Source: Escherichia phage vB_EcoM_P8
DNA length: 64,000 nt
Sequence record: PV390659.2
Reading direction: 5' to 3' (one strand)
In this document: one piece after another, positions 5,477 to 53,717 of the stretch
Layout: the number at the start of each line of letters is the position of its first letter
Numbering within the stretch: position 1 is the stretch's first letter
The notes under the pieces: generated by a model
Told to the model about the DNA's origin: nothing
The model's input: the letters and a program-made list of their open reading frames with translations, nothing else
Databases searched by the model: none
Position numbers and translations under genes: made by a program

Positions 5477-5659
5477 ATGGATTTATTTGAGATGTTAGAA
5501 GATAATCATTCTACGAATATCCAGAATGATTCTAGTGATTATAAGAAAGAGTACCGTATAGTATTACAGAATTATGGAATTGAAGCCCCAGATGCTCTTC
5601 TAGAAGAACTAGCTTCATACCATCTTGACCCTCCGCCCTGGGCTCCCTGGGCAAAATAA
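5477..5659 (+). CDS. hypothetical small acidic protein
   Basis: 60 aa ORF. Confidence 0.4.
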   Translation: MDLFEMLEDNHSTNIQNDSSDYKKEYRIVLQNYGIEAPDALLEELASYHLDPPPWAPWAK

Positions 5660-5670
5660 TTCAAAAAGTT

Positions 5671-5700
5671 GTTTACTTTCCTTCCTAACAATGATATGAT
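5671..5700 (+). promoter_or_regulatory. T4-type early promoter upstream of modB
   Basis: GTTTAC, 18-nt spacer, TATGAT. Confidence 0.5.
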
Positions 5701-5726
5701 AGTTTCTGAAGTATATGGAGGCTATC

Positions 5727-6350
5727 ATGATTATTAATCTCGCAGATGTTGAACAGTTATCTATAAAAGCTGAAAGTGTCGATTTTCAATATGATATGTA
5801 TAAAAAGGTCTGTGAAAAATTTACTGACTTTGAACAGTCAGTTCTTTGGCAGTGTATGGAAGCCAAAAAGAATGAAGCTCTTCATCGGCAGTTGAATAAA
5901 ATCGTTAAAAAGCATTTAACTAAATCGCCGTATCAGCTATATCGTGGTATATCAAAATCGACAAAAGAACTCATTAAAGATTTACAAGTTGGAGAAGTGT
6001 TTTCAACGAACAGAGTAGATTCATTTACTACTAGTTTGCATACAGCGTGTTCTTTTTCTTATGCTGAATATTTCACTGAAATAGTACTTCGCTTAAAAAC
6101 TGATAAAGCTTTTAATTACTCTGACCATATCAGCGATATTATACTTTCTTCTCCTAATACTGAGTTTAAGTATACATATGAAGATACTGATGGATTAGAT
6201 TCAGAACGTACTGATAACTTAATGATGATTGTGCGTGAACAAGAATGGATGATTCCAATTGGAAAGTATAAAATAACTTCTATTTCAAAAGAAAAATTAC
6301 ACGATTCATTTGGAACATTTAAAGTGTATGATATTGAGGTAGTTGAATGA
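5727..6350 (+). CDS. modB: ADP-ribosyltransferase ModB
   Basis: 207 aa from ATG 5727 (GGAGG SD); R-S-ExE ART motifs (YRG, STTS, EQEWMIP); first of tandem pair as in T4. Confidence 0.75.
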   Translation: MIINLADVEQLSIKAESVDFQYDMYKKVCEKFTDFEQSVLWQCMEAKKNEALHRQLNKIVKKHLTKSPYQLYRGISKSTKELIKDLQVGEVFSTNRVDSFTTSLHTACSFSYAEYFTEIVLRLKTDKAFNYSDHISDIILSSPNTEFKYTYEDTDGLDSERTDNLMMIVREQEWMIPIGKYKITSISKEKLHDSFGTFKVYDIEVVE

Positions 6351-6949: not shown

Positions 6950-7065
6950 TGGAAGGACTTAGATTCATTATACCATGAAAGTTTTAAAGCATTTTTCATA
7001 AAGTTGTTTACAAGCTGAAGTAAAAATGTTATAGTATAAGTAGTTAACCCGTCCGTGAGAAAAAT

Positions 7066-12406: not shown

Positions 12407-12676
12407 ATGGAAAACTTAATTATCATCGAACAATCTTTCAACGATTATGGTATGGCTTATGGTTATCGTGCGATAATGGAAGATTCTCGTGGATGTGTTA
12501 TCGATATTGCTGAATGTAAAGATTTACTGCAGCTTTTGAAGATTGTTCGCAAAAATTGGGATTGTGAAAACATTAAAGTTCGTGTTGTAACGGAAGAAGA
12601 AACTGTTTTTCATGATGTAAAATTTGCCAAAGGTGCTGCTACTCTTCTGAAACGCATCACTCCAATGTTCAATTAA
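12407..12676 (+). CDS. hypothetical protein
   Basis: 89 aa from ATG 12407 with GGAG SD. Confidence 0.5.
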   Translation: MENLIIIEQSFNDYGMAYGYRAIMEDSRGCVIDIAECKDLLQLLKIVRKNWDCENIKVRVVTEEETVFHDVKFAKGAATLLKRITPMFN

Positions 12677-12689
12677 CGAGGAAATTGTA

Positions 12690-12905
12690 ATGAAACGTAA
12701 AATTGTTCAGAACTGCACTAATGACGAATTTGAAGATGTGTTATTCGATCCAGATTTGGTAGTAGTTCAAAAGGAACACACTGCTAAGTTTACTCACTTG
12801 ACTTCGGTTTATGTGTATGAAAAGGTTGGGGATAAACAACCAATTTACGGTGTATTTCGTGAAATCACTGAAGACGGTACGACTTACTGGAAGGAAATTT
12901 ATTAA
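12690..12905 (+). CDS. hypothetical protein
   Basis: 71 aa ORF. Confidence 0.5.
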
Positions 12906-13330
12906 TGGCTATTAAATTTGAAGTTAATAAATGGTATCAATTTAAAAATAAACAAGCTCAAGAAAAATTTATTAAATATCATACTGAAAACGGAATTTAT
13001 GCACGACGTTTAGGTATGGAACCTTTTAAAGTTATAGATATTGACTATCTTGGTCGTCCTACTAAAATTGTGACATCTACTGGAATATTGGCATTATCCT
13101 CCGGTAAAGATATTTTGGATGAAGATTTTATTTGGCTTTCTACTAGCGAAGCTGAATTCTTTGATGAAGTTGAAAATCCATACCAGGCAGCTGAAGAGCA
13201 AGAGCAGGAAGAGAAAGAGCAAGAACAAATAGAAGATTTCACAGAATTTCCTGTCATGAAAGTTACTATTGAAAATAATGAACAGGCATGGTCCTTGTAT
13301 CAGATGTTGAAAGCACACTTTAAGGAATAA
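12905..13330 (+). CDS. hypothetical acidic protein
   Basis: 141 aa, TAATG-coupled. Confidence 0.55.
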
Positions 13331-13332
13331 TT

Positions 13333-13509
13333 ATGCCAATGTATGATTATAAATGCCAATCCGAAGATTGCGGGCATGAATATGAAAAAATTAAAAAGAT
13401 TTCTGAACGAGAAAATGATGTTTGCCCTAAATGTCATCGTTTGTCTACTCGTCGGCCTTCTGCTCCTAAGCATGTGAATGGTGGATTTTACGACTTACTT
13501 AAAGGGTAA
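13333..13509 (+). CDS. small zinc-ribbon protein (CxxC...CxxC)
   Basis: 58 aa ORF absent from track (<60 aa); AAGGA SD; MPMYDYKCQSEDCGHEYE...CPKCH. Confidence 0.5.
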   Translation: MPMYDYKCQSEDCGHEYEKIKKISERENDVCPKCHRLSTRRPSAPKHVNGGFYDLLKG

Positions 13510-13511
13510 TT

Positions 13512-13883
13512 ATGTTTAAAATCGGTAAGAAATATCGTGTTCGCGAAGGCAAAGAAAAGAAATATCTACTTTCTTCTATTTATAGGAATAGTTCTATTAA
13601 TACTGTAATATCTACAAGCGAATTTATCGTTGAAGATATGAAAGGTCATAATGTTACAATGATTAGTACAGCATCTGGAAATGATGGAAAAATTCTTCAT
13701 AGTTTTCAGAGTAATGTTCTAATTTATGATGAAGAATTTGACTTCTTCGAAGAAGTTACAGAAGATTTTGATTTTGAATGCACTATCACTATGAAATCTG
13801 GCGACCCTCTTTCTTTTACAGTTAAAGATGAAAGAAGTCGCTTGAGAATTATTAGTCTTCTTCAAGCCATTAAATTTGAGTGA
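13512..13883 (+). CDS. hypothetical protein
   Basis: 123 aa ORF. Confidence 0.55.
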   Translation: MFKIGKKYRVREGKEKKYLLSSIYRNSSINTVISTSEFIVEDMKGHNVTMISTASGNDGKILHSFQSNVLIYDEEFDFFEEVTEDFDFECTITMKSGDPLSFTVKDERSRLRIISLLQAIKFE

Positions 13884-14148
13884 AATTATGAAATATGTTA
13901 ATCGTTCTATCGCGGCATTAGTATTAGCAGTATCTTTAGTAGGATGTACTGATGCTGATAATGCAACCAAAGTTTTGTCTTCAAGTGGGTTTACTAATAT
14001 TGAAATCACTGGATACAATTGGTTTGGTTGCTCTGAAAATGATTTCCAACACACTGGATTTCGTGCTATTGGACCTACTGGGCAGAAAGTAGAAGGAACC
14101 GTGTGTTCTGGTCTATTCTTCAAGGATTCGACTATCCGTTTTAAATAA
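13876..14148 (+). CDS. putative lipoprotein
   Basis: Signal peptide plus lipobox LVGC at residues 21-24; 90 aa; hairpin terminator follows. Confidence 0.55.
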   Translation: MSEIMKYVNRSIAALVLAVSLVGCTDADNATKVLSSSGFTNIEITGYNWFGCSENDFQHTGFRAIGPTGQKVEGTVCSGLFFKDSTIRFK

Positions 14149-14170
14149 AAGGCCTTCGGGCCTTTAGCTT
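14148..14170 (+). terminator. terminator-like hairpin
   Basis: AAAGGCC-TTCG-GGCCTTT; weak U-tract. Confidence 0.4.
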
Positions 14171-14217
14171 TATGATTACCGGAGTATAATATTCCCAAAA
14201 CCAAACGAGGATAAGTG

Positions 14218-16035
14218 ATGATTAAGAATGAAATTAAAATTCTGAGCGATATTGAACATATCAAAAAGCGTAGCGGCATGTACATTGGTTCTTCTGCTAA
14301 TGAAATGCATGAGCGCTTTCTGTTTGGTAAATGGGAAAGTGTTCAGTATGTACCTGGTCTTGTTAAGCTTATTGATGAAATTATCGATAACTCGGTAGAT
14401 GAAGGTATTCGTACTAAGTTTAAATTCGCAAATAAAATTAATGTTACTATCAAAAACAATCAAGTAACAGTTGAAGATAACGGTCGTGGTATTCCACAGG
14501 CGATGGTTAAAACACCTACTGGTGAAGAAATTCCTGGTCCAGTTGCTGCATGGACTATTCCAAAAGCAGGTGGTAACTTTGGTGATGATAAAGAACGCGT
14601 CACTGGCGGTATGAACGGTGTTGGTTCTAGTTTAACTAACATTTTTTCTGTGATGTTTGTCGGTGAAACTGGCGACGGTCAAAATAATATTGTGGTTCGT
14701 TGTTCAAATGGCATGGAAAATAAATCATGGGAAACTATTCCTGGAAAATGGAAAGGAACTCGCGTTACTTTCATTCCTGATTTTATGTCATTTGAAACTA
14801 ATGAGCTATCTCAAGTTTATCTTGACATTACACTAGATCGTCTCCAGACACTTGCAGTAGTTTATCCTGATATTCAATTTACCTTTAATGGTAAAAAGGT
14901 TCAGGGTAATTTTAAGAAATATGCACGCCAATATGATGAACATGCTATCGTTCAAGAACAAGAAAACTGTTCTATTGCGGTTGGTCGTTCACCCGATGGT
15001 TTTCGTCAATTAACATACGTCAATAACATTCATACTAAGAATGGTGGCCATCACATTGACTGTGTTATGGATGATATTTGTGAAGACCTTATTCCACAAA
15101 TCAAACGTAAATTTAAAATTGACGTAACTAAAGCACGTGTTAAAGAATGTTTGACTATCGTTATGTTTGTTCGTGATATGAAAAACATGCGATTTGATTC
15201 TCAAACTAAAGAGCGTCTGACTTCTCCATTTGGTGAAATCCGTAGTCATATTCAGCTTGATGCTAAAAAGATTTCACGTGCTATTTTAAATAATGAAGCA
15301 ATTTTAATGCCAATCATTGAAGCTGCCTTGGCTCGTAAATTGGCGGCAGAAAAAGCAGCAGAAACTAAAGCAGCTAAAAAGGCTTCTAAAGCTAAGGTTC
15401 ATAAACATATTAAAGCGAATCTTTGTGGTAAAGATGCTGACACTACTCTTTTCTTGACTGAGGGTGATTCCGCTATCGGATATCTTATTGATGTTCGTGA
15501 TAAAGAACTTCATGGTGGTTATCCATTACGTGGTAAAGTTCTCAACAGTTGGGGTATGTCATATGCTGATATGCTTAAAAACAAAGAACTGTTTGATATT
15601 TGCGCAATCACTGGATTAGTTCTTGGTGAAAAAGCCGAAAACTTGAATTATCATAATATTGCTATTATGACTGACGCTGACCACGATGGTCTAGGAAGCA
15701 TTTATCCTTCTCTGCTCGGATTTTTCAGTAATTGGCCAGAACTGTTTGAACAAGGAAGAATTCGCTTTGTCAAAACTCCTGTAATCATCGCTCAGGTCGG
15801 TAAAAAACAAGAATGGTTTTATACAGTCGCTGAATATGAGAGTGCTAAAGATGCTCTACCTAAACATAGCATCCGTTATATTAAGGGACTTGGCTCTTTG
15901 GAAAAATCTGAATATCGTGAGATGATTCAAAACCCAGTATATGATGTTGTTAAACTTCCTGAGAACTGGAAAGAGCTTTTTGAAATGCTTATGGGAGATA
16001 ATGCTGATCTTCGTAAAGAATGGATGAGCCAGTAG
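14218..16035 (+). CDS. 39: DNA topoisomerase II large subunit, uninterrupted 39+60 fusion type
   Basis: 605 aa; GHKL ATPase N-terminus MIKNEIKILSDIEH..., Toprim C-terminus ...IAIMTDADHDG...; single ORF. Confidence 0.9.
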   Translation: MIKNEIKILSDIEHIKKRSGMYIGSSANEMHERFLFGKWESVQYVPGLVKLIDEIIDNSVDEGIRTKFKFANKINVTIKNNQVTVEDNGRGIPQAMVKTPTGEEIPGPVAAWTIPKAGGNFGDDKERVTGGMNGVGSSLTNIFSVMFVGETGDGQNNIVVRCSNGMENKSWETIPGKWKGTRVTFIPDFMSFETNELSQVYLDITLDRLQTLAVVYPDIQFTFNGKKVQGNFKKYARQYDEHAIVQEQENCSIAVGRSPDGFRQLTYVNNIHTKNGGHHIDCVMDDICEDLIPQIKRKFKIDVTKARVKECLTIVMFVRDMKNMRFDSQTKERLTSPFGEIRSHIQLDAKKISRAILNNEAILMPIIEAALARKLAAEKAAETKAAKKASKAKVHKHIKANLCGKDADTTLFLTEGDSAIGYLIDVRDKELHGGYPLRGKVLNSWGMSYADMLKNKELFDICAITGLVLGEKAENLNYHNIAIMTDADHDGLGSIYPSLLGFFSNWPELFEQGRIRFVKTPVIIAQVGKKQEWFYTVAEYESAKDALPKHSIRYIKGLGSLEKSEYREMIQNPVYDVVKLPENWKELFEMLMGDNADLRKEWMSQ

Positions 16036-33630: not shown

Positions 33631-36600
33631 TTATTCAACCCATTCAAATTTAACCGTTTTATTCACTGGGTCAGGAATAATACGAACATTACCAATTCGT
33701 AAGAAATCACGAATAGTAAGATTCCCCATTATAGCATTATCAGATGGTAAAGCACCAATATCAGATGGCTGAGGAGGGTTACCCCCATCAAATACCTGAA
33801 CAAAACTTGACCAAGAGTTTTTAGTTTTCTGCCATGTACGCGTCCAGCGAGTGGTGCGCGCTTCTGGGGTCGTTGGATAAGTAATCCAATCTTGGTAAAG
33901 CGAATCGAGTGTGTTACCAAACTGAGTCAACGTACCAGGAGATTTAACCTCTTCGCCGCGTTCTAAGTATGGAAGACCAGTCACTTCATTAGTTTTTTCA
34001 ACCATCTTAAAATAACCCGGGAATTGGTTATAAGTGGCTGAATCATTAATATCGATTGACCAGAATCCTACAGTATCAGATGTTGGCGCACGAGTATATA
34101 AATCAGAGGTTTTAGTACCCTGAGAACGAATTCTCGAGTTGACAGTTAAACCACCTGAAGTTATAGTAGCACCTTTGGCAATGATTAAGCTTTCACCAAT
34201 TGTAACCTGACCAGATTGATTATTAATAGCTAAAGGACGTAATCCATTAAATCCACCAGTCTGATCGCCAGATGCAGTAAGCATAAAATAGGTGTTAGCA
34301 GCATCATTGCGAATAAAGAATCCATAATCACCGTTTATTGCTCTAAAAGCATTCGACGATTTACTGATAAATTCGCCATTAGCAGTAACTGAACTACCGA
34401 ATGTTGCAACGCCATTCGCATTCAATGTTCCTGAAGCATTCACATTTATCGGTGTTACTGTACCATTAATGCTAAATGCTATATTACCATCTTTATTGCG
34501 TTGAGAATAAAAGTGATAAGATGTGTCATCACTAACTTCAAATACAGTAGAACGTGTTGTATCTGACCCGCCACCAAACTGATTTCCCCAAACTGTGATA
34601 TTCATCGTCTGTGCTGGGTTAGTTCCAGTTTGAGGTCCTTTCTCAAAAATCAGACGAGTTGCTGTTCCAGTATTAGAAATAGTTAATGTGCTATTTGCCG
34701 AAACTGATCCACCAAACGTAGCAGTACTAGATGATACAAGAGGGGCACTCAGATTCGTTTGTTGGGTTAAGGTTAGTGAACCATTAACCGTTTGTGCAAT
34801 ATCCCTACGAATGAACTGAGATGAATCTAGACCATCCAGTAAATTACTATCTACGGCTTTTGCTTTTAACGGCAAATAATTTGCTAATACACGGTTTAAT
34901 TCATATGGCGATACTGCATAGCTATTTTTCTCGTACAATTCTAATGACTGCGTTGAACCAACTGTATCATTACCAACGAATGTAATTGAACCAGATGAAG
35001 TTTTAACAAAACCTCTTACCAGAGTAGTAGCTGCCCAAGTAGGTTCACTCTGCACAATCCATTTTAAATTTTTTGGAGATACAGCAGTATTTGCTGACGT
35101 TCCAGCTACAGTTTCAGACTGAGTTGCAACTTTAATAACGCCTTCCTGTGCTTCAGTAGATTTAGTACCTAAAAGCTTTTTAGGAGTTATTAAAACATTA
35201 TCTAATGTTCCTGCAGCAGCTTCAACTTGTGTAGCTACACGAAGTGTACCACGCTGAGTCTCATTTGCTTCAAGAATATTAAGGGTATAATGGTCCCAGA
35301 GAGTTCCTGATTCAACTAATCCAGATAGAGCAACAACAGAAGTACGATCAGTACTATTAAATCTGGTTTTAATTTTTAATGGTGTAGAGATACGAGTATC
35401 GTCGACGCCTGCGTCGAATTCAACTTGCGTAGCAATTTCAGCTATACCACTTAAACTTTCAGTTGCTTTACGGTCATTTAAAGTTTTAGGAGTGACTGCA
35501 CGGGTATAATCAGTTCCTGTATTAACTTCACTTTGCGTAGCAATTTCAATTAAACCAATTCTTCCATCAGTTGATGTCTTTTTATGTAACGTTTCTGGCG
35601 TTACAACCGCATTTGCCCATCCTTCTTGGCTTTGTCCAGCAATTACTTCACTTTCGACTGCTAGAATTACTGCACCTTGTTGCGTTGGAGTAGCTTTATA
35701 CTGATCCAAAGCTTTAGGCGAAACAACTAAATTATTAGTGTTTTTATTATAAACGTTTGTACCATTTAATTCACGACTAGAAGCTGGAGTAGCTCCTGCA
35801 GTAGATACAAAGGTTACAATACCAGATAATGACTCAGAACCTTGTCGAGCTTGAAGCTTTTTAGGAGTGATGATTGTAGTATCATCAGTACCTGTGTTAG
35901 TTTCTTGCTGCGTCGCAATTTCAGCAACACCTCTACGAGTTTCTGTGGCAGTTCTTTCATTCAGCTTTTTAGGAGTGACGATAATATCATCAGCAAAAGA
36001 GAATGTAGTATCCTGGTTCACTTGGGCAGTAGTTGCTATTCTTGCGATACCTCTACGAGTTTCTGTAGCAGTACGGTTAGCTAATGTTTCTGGTGTAATT
36101 GCTAATTCTTTTTGTGGAGAATTTTCTAAATCGACGTTAGCTTGAGCTTGTGTAGCTAAAGCAATTACGCCTAATCTTGCTCTAGTAGAATCATTTAAAG
36201 AATCAACTCTTTCAACTGTTGGCACGTTTTGCTGCACCACCCAGTATTTTTCATCAGAATCTTCTATATAAGCAAGCTGTAAAACTGGAACATAATTGGT
36301 TTCGCCGTTAAAAACTAATTCTTGAACAGTCACCCATTCAGCTTCAGGTGGATATTCTGAACGTTTTGGGAATTGCAGCAATTGAACTGAAGAAGCAATT
36401 TTATCTTCACCGGCAGCTTTGATTTTAACTGTTTGTCCTTTTCTCATATAATTCATGGAAATTTTAACAGTATCACCAATGGAAATATCGGTTGGAAGCT
36501 GAAGTTCAATTGTTTGGGTTGTTCCGTTATTCGCTCCAAATACCATAACTTCTTCATTTGGACGAATACTAGAATTAGTTGTTATAATACGTAAACGTGC

Positions 36601-53382: not shown

Positions 53383-53717
53383 TGAATTTAACTGATATAA
53401 TTGATAATTGTCTTGAAAATGATACTGGCGATCATAGAGCGCTTGATTCTGAAACAGCACAGTTCATTAGAATAACTTTAATGAATGATACTCTAGTGAA
53501 TAGCATTCATCCTTCTGTGTATGATGCTATTATTGTGACGAAGTATCCAGTTGAGCTTCACAAAAAGATGGCTGGTGCAATTTTCATTGATAAGAAAAAC
53601 CGCTTTAAAGATGGGCAGAATATAATTAGTTCTGTTATTAAAAGTATAACTAAACTTCGTCACGAAATTTATCGTGTTGAAACTGCTAAATCTGCTTATC
53701 TGGTGATTATGAAATGA
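53379..53717 (+). CDS. hypothetical protein
   Basis: 112 aa. Confidence 0.5.
   Translation: MMNLTDIIDNCLENDTGDHRALDSETAQFIRITLMNDTLVNSIHPSVYDAIIVTKYPVELHKKMAGAIFIDKKNRFKDGQNIISSVIKSITKLRHEIYRVETAKSAYLVIMK

Follow-up and report, generated by a model that had tools for sequence, protein, structure and literature searches.

Two small genes near gene 39 of Escherichia phage vB_EcoM_P8 are real and are the known T-even phage genes 39.2 and 39.1, and the second of them encodes a protein that, as far as its sequence can tell, carries every hallmark of a bacterial lipoprotein. We hold this lipoprotein anatomy to be very probable. The best explanation overall, which we favor tentatively and stop just short of calling probable, is that the region is the end of an early transcription unit in which 39.1 would act as a stand-alone envelope effector. 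That the function of 39.1 is exclusion or protection is possible, and we hold it with less assurance. The analysis covers a 64,000-nt stretch of sequence record PV390659.2, which we call the window.

Gene Order and Annotation of the Locus

The DNA of the region is 100% identical to that of the Tequatrovirus phage vB_EcoM_BMB16, and the gene order at the 39.2/39.1 locus is one that is common to T4 and T6. The preliminary description had taken the zinc-ribbon gene to be missed; in GenBank, CDSs are present at the coordinates of both the 39.2 and the 39.1 orthologues, so neither is a new gene. The 58 codons of the 39.2 ORF fall below the 60-aa default of an ORF list. Some relatives in the databases are already labeled "lipoprotein" or "FmdB-like", the former label being attached to gp39.1 in a few UniRef and GenBank records. 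The arrangement described earlier, in which the lipoprotein ORF comes two genes after the zinc ribbon and lies just upstream of gene 39, is borne out, as evidenced by the 123-aa ORF in between and by the start of gene 39 at 14218. The features are collected in Table 1. An Rfam scan of 12600–14400 gave no meaningful match.

Table 1. Features of the 39.2/39.1 locus, with positions in the window
Feature	Position	Strand	Basis
AAGGA Shine-Dalgarno of 39.2	13322..13326	+	Read from sequence
39.2 orthologue, 58-aa FmdB-family zinc ribbon	13333..13509	+	ORF, Pfam, TIGR02605, PHROG 1076, annotated CDS
123-aa ORF, RB69ORF005c-like	13512..13883	+	ORF call, PHROG 622, annotation
39.1 orthologue, 86-aa predicted lipoprotein precursor	13888..14148	+	ORF, annotation, PHROG 902
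Predicted signal peptide, residues 1–19	13888..13944	+	Hydropathy profile, PS51257-style rule
Predicted lipobox L17-V18-G19-C20	13936..13947	+	PROSITE PS51257-style regex rule matched
Predicted mature domain, 67 aa	13945..14145	+	AlphaFold2 model, Cys co-variation
Hairpin AAAGGCC-UUCG-GGCCUUU	14148..14165	+	Folding; T4 copy identical
MotA-box-like GCTTTA, 12-nt spacer, TATAAT	14167..14190	+	Pattern scan
Gene 39, DNA topoisomerase II large subunit, fused 39+60 form	14218..16035	+	ORF, annotation

Taken together, the region would represent the end of a T-even early transcription unit that runs through cef, goF, 39.2, the 123-aa ORF of the goF family, and 39.1, with the UUCG hairpin marking its end and the gene 39 middle promoter coming next. 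Gene 39.1 sits within an array of early accessory genes and has the host-takeover genes motB, cef, and goF around it.

The hairpin that had been noted after the lipoprotein gene is indeed present and begins within the 39.1 stop codon. It folds with a free energy of −10.7 kcal/mol, and only 8 of 200 shuffled sequences fold equally well. A generic terminator scan did not call it, which we attribute to the short U tract, and some phage records tag it as a "terminator"; it is probably either a transcript terminator or an RNA-stabilizing stem-loop. The MotA-type promoter pattern occurs 4 times in the window against an expectation of 0.19, and the match that follows the hairpin is, by comparison with the known T4 consensus, the probable middle promoter of gene 39, whose product is 605 aa long from the ATG at 14218.

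The 123-aa ORF is found in T6 and is lacking in T4. Both it and goF fall in PHROG family 622, while pairwise BLAST between the two is not significant; as a putative goF paralogue, it has its support at the level of profiles only.

A Zinc Ribbon Encoded by Gene 39.2

The 58-codon ORF with an AAGGA ribosome binding site was found as described, with the AAGGA placed 6 nt before the ATG at 13333 and within the last codons of goF. The identification of its product as a zinc ribbon also stands, as evidenced by matches to Pfam PF09723 Zn_ribbon_8 (E 6.7e-12, 45.7 bits, cut-off 34.4) and to the FmdB-family zinc ribbon model TIGR02605 (E 8.7e-12, 44.9 bits, cut-off 31.3). The CxxC...CxxC pattern given for it needs correction, however: the cysteines at residues 8, 13, 31, and 34 form a CX4C...CX2C arrangement, in which the first knuckle is C-QSED-C and the second is CPKC. 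The protein resembles the FmdB family in its N-terminal MPxYxYxC motif and its four cysteines, but differs from PF09723 and TIGR02605 (CxxC_CxxC_SSSS) in that it lacks the Ser-rich tail and has the tail RRPSAPKHVNGGFYDLLKG instead.

Resequenced T4 encodes a 58-aa orthologue, whereas in the T4 reference 39.2 is shortened to 45 aa. All four cysteines are also found in T4 39.2, and the C-terminal APKHVNGGFYDLLKG is conserved between the window phage and T4. These features suggest that 39.2 would be a small FmdB-family zinc ribbon that has four cysteines and resides in the cytoplasm; the label "transcriptional regulator" that it sometimes carries is propagated annotation. The T4 39.2 RNA belongs to the early class (PMC9697503 supplements).

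Predicted Lipoprotein Anatomy of the 39.1 Product

The 39.1 product matches PHROG 902 over residues 1–86 with an E value of 9.5e-37. A TTG start at 13876, which would give 90 aa, was considered and dropped in favor of the ATG at 13888, which is both annotated and conserved among homologues; every homologue begins at the methionine of an MK... sequence. The signal peptide and the LVGC lipobox of the preliminary description therefore hold, while the protein is 86 rather than 90 aa long. The predicted signal peptide has K2 and R6 in its n-region and a hydrophobic core at residues 7–19, across which hydropathy in a 9-residue window is 2.7–3.0. The lipobox rule that was applied is [LVI][ASTVI][GAS]-C with the Cys at position 15–35. 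The lipobox Cys is conserved in 177 of 195 relatives, and lipidation is predicted at Cys20, with which the mature protein would begin. A separate regex count recognized a lipobox in 96 members, of which 81 have Thr and none has Asp at +2. Because residue +2 is Thr, the sorting rule points to the outer membrane as the destination.

An AlphaFold2 model of the mature domain has one helix and four antiparallel strands with a mean pLDDT of 84.2. The first helix of the model begins at mature residue 4, so that the tether from anchor to helix would be three residues long and would hold a 67-residue alpha/beta domain against the outer membrane on its periplasmic side. Residues Cys48 and Cys73 are retained or lost jointly in the family (both in 179 members, neither in 9, and a mixed state in 5; Fisher p = 1.4e-11), and a disulfide between them is probable. 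Their co-variation argues for an oxidizing, periplasmic location. A polar cluster comprising Y43, D52, T56, K79, T82, and R84 is also conserved in the family.

Searches for relatives of this domain returned only further members of the family. In Foldseek searches of the PDB, run first with the full-length model and then with that of the mature domain, the best E value was 0.97 with TM <0.45, and the family profile had 0 matches at E up to 10 among PDB sequences. The matches to the model in BFVD are uncharacterized family members only. When the lipoprotein and two distant members were compared with Pfam, NCBIfam, and PADLOC, the outcome was signal-peptide-level noise only, and relaxing Pfam to E up to 1 yielded one unrelated weak match and nothing else.

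Distribution of the 39.1 Family

The family is present in 1070 phage records and in 2232 representative clusters at 50% identity, and its range takes in T4-like phages, jumbo phages, and prophages across Proteobacteria, Bacteroidota, and Planctomycetota. The same domain, at ∼50% identity, occurs in phages or prophages of Burkholderia, Achromobacter, Sphingobium, Flagellimonas, and Planctomycetes. When bacterial genomes were searched with a degenerate DNA pattern, 19 of 20 matches were true family members, and those examined are located in prophage regions that also encode a CI-like repressor, an O-like replication protein, a DNA polymerase, or a RecE-like exonuclease.

In other phages the homologue lies within long runs of small early genes. 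When the ORFs from 24 loci were compared all against all by BLAST, nothing was shared apart from the lipoprotein and its antisense shadow ORF, and since no partner gene is conserved across these loci, 39.1 would appear to act alone. No Pfam or NCBIfam model and no solved structural relative of the family was found in the library and PDB searches, and a literature search found no functional study or phenotype of gp39.1. T4 encodes a well-conserved, uncharacterized early protein that is predicted to be an outer-membrane lipoprotein, and that belongs to a widespread, stand-alone family without a known relative. For the study of how phages remodel the Gram-negative envelope, this family offers a cheap and well-defined experimental target.

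Comparison with T4 and T6

The 39.1 precursor of the window phage and that of resequenced T4 are identical at 84 of 86 residues, and the two differences, V4I and V18I, are both in the signal peptide, so that the mature domains are identical. The T6 protein differs from the window protein by 2 aa in all, one of which is within the mature domain. Relative to T4, the codon differences in 39.1 are 16 synonymous and 2 non-synonymous (the V/I changes in the signal peptide), as compared with 16 and 11 in 39.2 and 22 and 20 in goF. Strong purifying selection acts on the family. The paucity of non-synonymous changes in 39.1 suggests that the target of the protein is probably strongly conserved.

The T4 reference (NC_000866 / AF158101) gives a different picture, since there 39.1 is a 65-aa fragment that lacks both the signal peptide and the lipobox. 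The reference departs from resequenced T4 at ∼15 places within ∼190 nt, including two 1-nt insertions, and it is these clustered discrepancies that truncate 39.2 and 39.1. They are absent from every resequenced T4, in which both genes are intact. On the corrected sequence, the true ATG of 39.1 falls near position 5659 of NC_000866. We treat them as sequence errors, although they may alternatively represent a lineage-specific lesion. The nature of the 39.1 family has thereby been hidden in T4: we ascribe its having been overlooked there to a reference sequence that destroys the signal peptide, and in PHROG-based tables T4p007 is a singleton.

The discrepancies have also had a practical cost, in that a published knock-down library is misdirected at 39.1. 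A genome-wide T4 knock-down screen reported 39.1 and 39.2 to be without fitness effect (PMC11879866 supplements). The guides for 39.1 were placed on the false NC_000866 start codon and carry the reference discrepancies, and the call of no fitness effect is therefore weak for this gene. As a separate matter, an exclusion gene is not expected to be important during single-phage growth in the laboratory.

Proposed Function of 39.1

The early expression proposed for the lipoprotein agrees with data on T4, in which the 39.1 RNA belongs to the early class and its protein has been detected, although the protein accumulates with the "late" class despite the early RNA (PMC9697503 supplements). The 86-aa precursor would be exported through Sec, lipidated on Cys20 by Lgt, Lsp, and Lnt, delivered to the outer membrane by Lol, and oxidized to form the Cys48–Cys73 disulfide. 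This pathway is drawn from the sequence together with established lipoprotein biology; the lipidation, outer-membrane location, target, and phenotype of 39.1 are what we infer.

The target of 39.1 is probably strongly conserved and would be something other than the phage's own variable receptor. From such a position 39.1 might block secondary attack, whether by other phages, lysis from without, or bacteriocins, in a manner that is not receptor-specific, or it might stabilize the outer membrane until lysis. The classical explanation of superinfection exclusion in T-even phages is Imm and Sp, which leaves no exclusion phenotype that would need 39.1 to account for it. Searches of Pfam, PHROG, NCBIfam, PADLOC, PDB, and BFVD showed no sequence or fold similarity of 39.1 to characterized exclusion, receptor-blocking, or lysozyme-inhibitor proteins. 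A bolder proposal, which we rate as rather unlikely, is that gp39.1 is the founding member of a very large, unrecognized family of single-gene phage effectors that sit on the periplasmic side of the outer membrane and from there act on some universal component of the envelope. Candidate targets may include the BAM or Lpt machinery, TonB-dependent transporters, or inner-leaflet lipid. If this proposal were true, the family would close or harden the infected cell independently of the receptor.

Other readings of 39.1 were considered against the same data. Receptor masking of the Llp or Cor type, which the preliminary description had put forward along with superinfection exclusion, would have 39.1 inactivate the phage's own outer-membrane receptor from the periplasmic side, with the consequence that sister phages would be excluded and progeny spared adsorption to cell debris. 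The predicted anatomy is indeed similar in general terms to that of T5 Llp, an outer-membrane lipoprotein that is likewise small, is made early, and has both a disulfide and a short tether. However, the receptor of T4 is OmpC and that of T6 is Tsx, and yet the mature domain is identical to that of T4 and only one change from that of T6; moreover, the gene adjoins gene 39, away from tail-fiber or adhesin genes, and the domain spans phages of several bacterial phyla. The sole PHROG match, 902, is of unknown function, and a PDB fold search gave nothing with E <0.9. The near-constant mature domain across two receptors, the lack of tail-fiber linkage, and the multi-phylum range lead us to disfavor receptor masking and to regard it as very unlikely. 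A functional pairing of the cytoplasmic zinc ribbon 39.2 with the periplasmic lipoprotein 39.1 appears more improbable still. The two genes are directly adjacent in T4, in the distant family members P0152 and P0186 the plain lipobox is replaced by a transmembrane helix and a Cys-rich segment at the N terminus, and small four-Cys ORFs occur near the lipoprotein gene at three unrelated loci (L004, L007, and L022). Against this, a 123-aa gene separates the pair in the window and in T6, Klebsiella is the second commonest organism among 39.1 matches (251 records) and outside the top ten for 39.2, no neighbor family is common to the 24 loci, and the early regions of phages often encode small zinc ribbons.

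A role in lysis, with 39.1 as an extra o-spanin-like or lysis-timing lipoprotein or as a peptidoglycan hydrolase inhibitor like MliC, PliC, or Sp, would give the protein control over when the envelope fails. A predicted outer-membrane lipoprotein facing the periplasm is suitably placed for this, the conserved polar cluster described above would fit a conserved enzyme or ligand, and the T4 protein falls in the "late" class though its RNA is early. That early RNA also counts against the idea, as do the absence of an i-spanin partner or lysis gene adjoining 39.1, the modeled domain, which is folded and not proline-rich, and the lack of a Pfam match to MliC, PliC, or Ivy or of a PDB fold match; we consider a lysis role improbable. 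Somewhat better placed, and still on the unlikely side, is counter-defense or some other form of host takeover at the envelope, for example neutralizing an envelope-associated exclusion system of the host or a prophage, or reprogramming an outer-membrane biogenesis or transport machine. The position of 39.1 among host-takeover genes, the runs of small early genes that surround its homologues in other phages, and its stand-alone and very widespread nature are all in keeping with such a role. It matches no PADLOC model, a result to be read in light of the fact that these models describe defense and not anti-defense proteins.

Comparison with Known Systems

The small outer-membrane lipoproteins Llp of T5 and Cor of T1, phi80, and N15 block phage receptors from the periplasmic side, and Llp is made early and has a disulfide. 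Work by Decker et al. in 1994 was reportedly on T5 Llp. No sequence or profile similarity links 39.1 to these proteins, its only PHROG match being 902 and no Pfam or NCBIfam family matching, and 39.1 has no PDB fold match (the presence of an Llp entry in that library is unconfirmed). In addition, 39.1 lies apart from any gene for a receptor-binding protein, shows no co-variation with receptor specificity, and has a much broader taxonomic range.

T4 guards the infected cell against secondary T-even phages with two early envelope proteins, Imm and Sp (spackle). The former resides in the inner membrane, and the latter is a soluble protein of the periplasm that inhibits the gp5 lysozyme; neither is a lipoprotein, and no similarity of either to 39.1 was found by Pfam, PHROG, or PDB fold search. 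MliC and PliC likewise differ in that 39.1 has no profile or fold match to them. The o-spanins lambda Rz1 and T4 PseT.2 share with the predicted 39.1 product the property of being phage-encoded outer-membrane lipoproteins, but spanins are late, paired with an i-spanin, and largely unstructured, whereas 39.1 is early, alone, and modeled as folded (pLDDT 84). The closest counterpart of the window protein is T4 gp39.1 itself (PHROG 902), an orthologue that is encoded at the same place, immediately upstream of gene 39.

Organization of the 39.2–39.1 locus

From 12690 to 14300, the sequence matches Escherichia phage vB_EcoM_BMB16 (Tequatrovirus) at 100% identity and hundreds of T4-like phages at 95–96%. 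The genes that GenBank annotates here correspond in T4 to cef, goF, 39.2, 39.1, and 39; therefore, both the zinc-ribbon ORF (39.2) and the lipoprotein ORF (39.1) are real, already annotated, and T4-named. The preliminary description had called the zinc-ribbon ORF missed, but it exists as a GenBank CDS and is absent only from an ORF list with a 60-aa threshold. Apart from that word, the cysteine spacing of 39.2, and the start codon of 39.1, the original observation is correct.

Features of the 39.2–39.1 region in window coordinates
Feature	Position	Strand	Source
cef	12690-12905	+	GenBank
goF, 141-aa protein	12905-13330	+	GenBank
39.2, 58-aa hypothetical protein	13333-13509	+	GenBank
T4 reference discrepancies, NC_000866 / AF158101 ~5585-5775 (L002, the T4 reference locus)	13420-13960		alignment
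123-aa hypothetical protein	13512-13883	+	GenBank
39.1, 86-aa hypothetical protein	13888-14148	+	GenBank
Hairpin, 7-bp stem and UUCG loop	14148-14165	+	folding, -10.7 kcal/mol
GCTTTA, 12 nt, TATAAT	14167-14190	+	pattern scan, directly past hairpin
DNA topoisomerase large subunit (gene 39)	from 14218	+	GenBank

The hairpin first noted after the lipoprotein gene is present directly past the 39.1 stop codon and is identical in T4. The GCTTTA/TATAAT element that follows fits the T4 MotA-dependent middle-promoter consensus, and the pattern GCTTYA-N11-13-TATAAT has four matches in the window versus 0.19 expected by chance. The combination of hairpin and MotA-type pattern therefore indicates that 39.1 ends the upstream early unit and that gene 39 is probably transcribed from a middle promoter of its own. 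The three other exact matches, at 6967-6990 (-), 35267-35291 (+), and 53602-53626 (+), are probably middle promoters as well. A 188-aa antisense ORF (13719-14285, - strand) that covers 39.1, the hairpin, and the start of gene 39 was rejected as an artefact of conserved sense sequence; antisense shadow ORFs of the lipoprotein gene clustered across eight loci in the BLAST comparison.

Three neighboring genes set this phage apart from T4. T4 lacks the 123-aa ORF; T6 has it, annotated there as similar to RB69ORF005c. Both it and goF fall in PHROG 622, pairwise BLAST between the two is not significant, and the ORF may be a diverged goF duplicate. An additional 89-aa hypothetical gene (12407-12676) lies between motB and cef, whereas the 170-bp motB–cef gap of T4 holds no counterpart. 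Gene 39 is uninterrupted in the window (14218-16035, 605 aa from the ATG at 14218) and in T6, whereas in T4 mobA divides it into 39 and 60, with translational bypass.

The 39.2 zinc ribbon

The 58-codon ORF and its AAGGA ribosome-binding site read as originally described. The zinc ribbon also stands, as the protein scores above the curated thresholds of Pfam PF09723 and TIGR02605 (FmdB-family zinc ribbon), but the proposed CxxC...CxxC spacing does not: the cysteines are residues 8, 13, 31, and 34, or CX4C...CX2C. The protein matches PHROG 1076, has relatives in 885 phage records and none among solved structures, and has no Ser-rich tail, the feature after which TIGR02605 is named. Its label as an "FmdB-like transcriptional regulator" is inherited annotation, for which we found no supporting experiment. 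The middle of 39.2 has diverged from T4 by 11 substitutions, and the C-terminal 15 residues (13465-13509), APKHVNGGFYDLLKG, are identical in the two phages, a sign that the tail may hold a functional motif beyond the zinc ribbon.

A probable error in the T4 reference and its consequences

The T4 reference (NC_000866 / AF158101) gives 39.1 a length of 65 aa, with no signal peptide, and 39.2 a length of 45 aa. Alignment shows LINS where the lipobox belongs; one 1-nt insertion brings the 39.1 frame to a stop past the signal peptide, and a second truncates 39.2. Relative to resequenced T4 (MT984581), in which the 86-aa lipoprotein (lipobox LIGC) and the 58-aa zinc ribbon are both intact, the reference differs by two 1-nt insertions and ~13 substitutions, mostly A/G, all within one ~190 nt stretch with identical flanks. 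The faulty version occurs in four old entries (M89919, X06220, AF158101, and NC_000866) and in no other record among 218 matches; all nine other T4/T4T genomes among the 40 matches listed have one base fewer than the reference. We read the differences as 1980s gel-reading errors carried into the reference, although they may instead be a lineage-specific lesion.

These discrepancies bear on published phenotypes. In a CRISPRi-ART screen of T4, 39.1 and 39.2 alike received the score "Not Fit" (PMC11879866, supplementary files 15 and 25; T4p007 is a PHROG singleton in these tables). Start codons were taken from NC_000866, and the authors note their reliance on correct start prediction (PMC11879866). 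The 39.1 guides listed lie at NC_000866 5565-5615, on the false start codon, whereas the true ATG, counted from the alignment, is near 5659, and the listed guide sequences include erroneous reference bases (PMC11879866 tables). Therefore, the "Not Fit" call for 39.1 is weak evidence, and an exclusion function would not be revealed by a single-phage laboratory assay. In a T4 transcriptome and proteome time course, 39.1 RNA is classed as early, in agreement with the early expression initially proposed, and the protein is detected in the "late" class; 39.2 has early RNA and its protein was not detected (PMC9697503, supplementary files 4 and 6).

Anatomy of the 39.1 lipoprotein

The signal peptide and lipobox of the preliminary description are borne out, and its length of 90 aa is not. 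That length requires a TTG start, which we rejected: GenBank uses the ATG at 13888, which comes four bases after the 123-aa ORF stops, and every homologue begins at that methionine. The resulting 86-aa precursor agrees with a PROSITE PS51257-style rule: its n-region carries K2 and R6, residues 7-19 form a hydrophobic core, and the L-V-G-C lipobox has its Cys at position 20. The +2 residue is Thr. The lipobox Cys is kept in 177 of 195 relatives aligned with the window protein. In a separate count of 96 members with a recognisable lipobox, +2 is Thr in 81 and Asp in none. By the E. coli sorting rule for lipoproteins, this residue points to the outer membrane for 39.1.

C48 and C73 are both kept in 179 family members, both lost in nine, and mixed in five (Fisher p = 1.4e-11), a co-variation that reads as the signature of a disulfide and hence of a protein that would be exported. 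AlphaFold2 predicts a confident small fold for the mature domain (mean pLDDT 84.2), with one helix from mature residue 4 followed by four antiparallel strands; so short a tether should hold the domain close against the outer membrane's inner face. The family-conserved positions (Y43, C48, D52, T56, F58, G70, V72, C73, K79, T82, and R84) fit a single conserved ligand or partner better than masking of the phage's own receptor. Taken as a whole, we consider the proposed anatomy very probably right.

Distribution of the 39.1 family

By tblastn, 39.1 is found in 1070 of 50,697 phage records. These include many Straboviridae genera, with Escherichia, Klebsiella, Enterobacter, Serratia, Yersinia, Edwardsiella, and Aeromonas as hosts, jumbo phages (Burkholderia BcepSaruman and Klebsiella Eowyn), and a 127-kb Vibrio phage. 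Searching 1.84 billion representative proteins with a profile returned 2232 clusters at E up to 0.001, 1117 of them at E up to 1e-10; among the 150 listed, lengths are almost always 70-142 aa. Three proteins from this search vary in architecture: P0103 carries two tandem copies of the domain, P0152 a Cys-rich N-terminus and then a prepilin-like leader (GFTLVEMLIVL), and P0186 an N-terminal four-Cys segment and a transmembrane helix ahead of the lipobox.

A degenerate DNA pattern for TGY-x12-TGF-x11-GxVC, run on GTDB genomes, matched 20 places, 19 of which translate to true family members, most with a lipobox; hosts include Achromobacter, Pandoraea, Sphingobium, Roseococcus, Flagellimonas (Bacteroidota), Chitinophagaceae, and Isosphaeraceae (Planctomycetota). 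The genes adjoining the lipoprotein in four isolate genomes match phage families, and those with annotated function encode a CI-like repressor, an O-like replication protein, a DNA polymerase, and a RecE-like exonuclease. The gene lies within long same-strand arrays of small hypothetical genes in RB43, Aeromonas phage CC2, BcepSaruman, and Vibrio phage P018-4. No other gene is common to the 24 loci compared. Three unrelated loci from bacterial assemblies (L004 1282-1536, L022 3655-3909, and L007 5683-5850) have small four-Cys zinc-ribbon-like ORFs no more than a few hundred bases from the lipoprotein gene. This proximity could be chance, because such ORFs are common in phage early regions.

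Possible function and comparison with characterised proteins

The 39.1 gene itself is known and annotated; worth passing on are the T4 reference error, with what follows from it, and how large and isolated the family is. Pfam, NCBIfam, and PADLOC hold no family for 39.1, a PDB sequence search gave no match, and a PDB fold search gave nothing below E 0.9. The only PHROG match is family 902 (function not described), and BFVD fold matches are uncharacterised relatives only, from Enterobacter phage PG7, Agrobacterium phage Atu_ph07, Edwardsiella phage pEt-SU, and Klebsiella phage N1M2.

The best-supported picture is of a stand-alone, disulfide-stabilised lipoprotein that would lie on the periplasmic face of the outer membrane and act on a conserved envelope component. 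There it might protect the infected cell or lysogen from secondary attack in a receptor-independent way, or stabilise the outer membrane, a guess to which we give rather less than even weight. In two of the four isolate genomes, the prophages of Achromobacter veterisilvae (L007) and Pandoraea morbifera (L021) place the gene 1-2.5 kb downstream of the CI-like repressor and on its strand, a position common for lysogen-expressed exclusion genes. Rival proposals invoke a part in lysis, counter-defence at the envelope, or joint action of 39.2 and 39.1 as a pair.

An Llp-type lipoprotein would instead mask the phage's own receptor. Against T4, 39.1 has 16 synonymous and two non-synonymous codon differences (both V/I, in the signal peptide), compared with 16 and 11 for 39.2 and 22 and 20 for goF. 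The mature domain is identical in the window phage and T4, and T6 gp39.1 differs from the window protein at two residues. T4 uses OmpC with LPS as receptor, whereas T6 uses Tsx. An own-receptor masker would not be expected to be invariant across phages that differ in receptor, to lie far from the adhesin genes, as 39.1 does, or to recur at ~50% identity in phages of other phyla. We therefore rate an Llp-type reading of 39.1 low, and the receptor masking first suggested for this lipoprotein, near-invariant across T4 and T6, is probably wrong.
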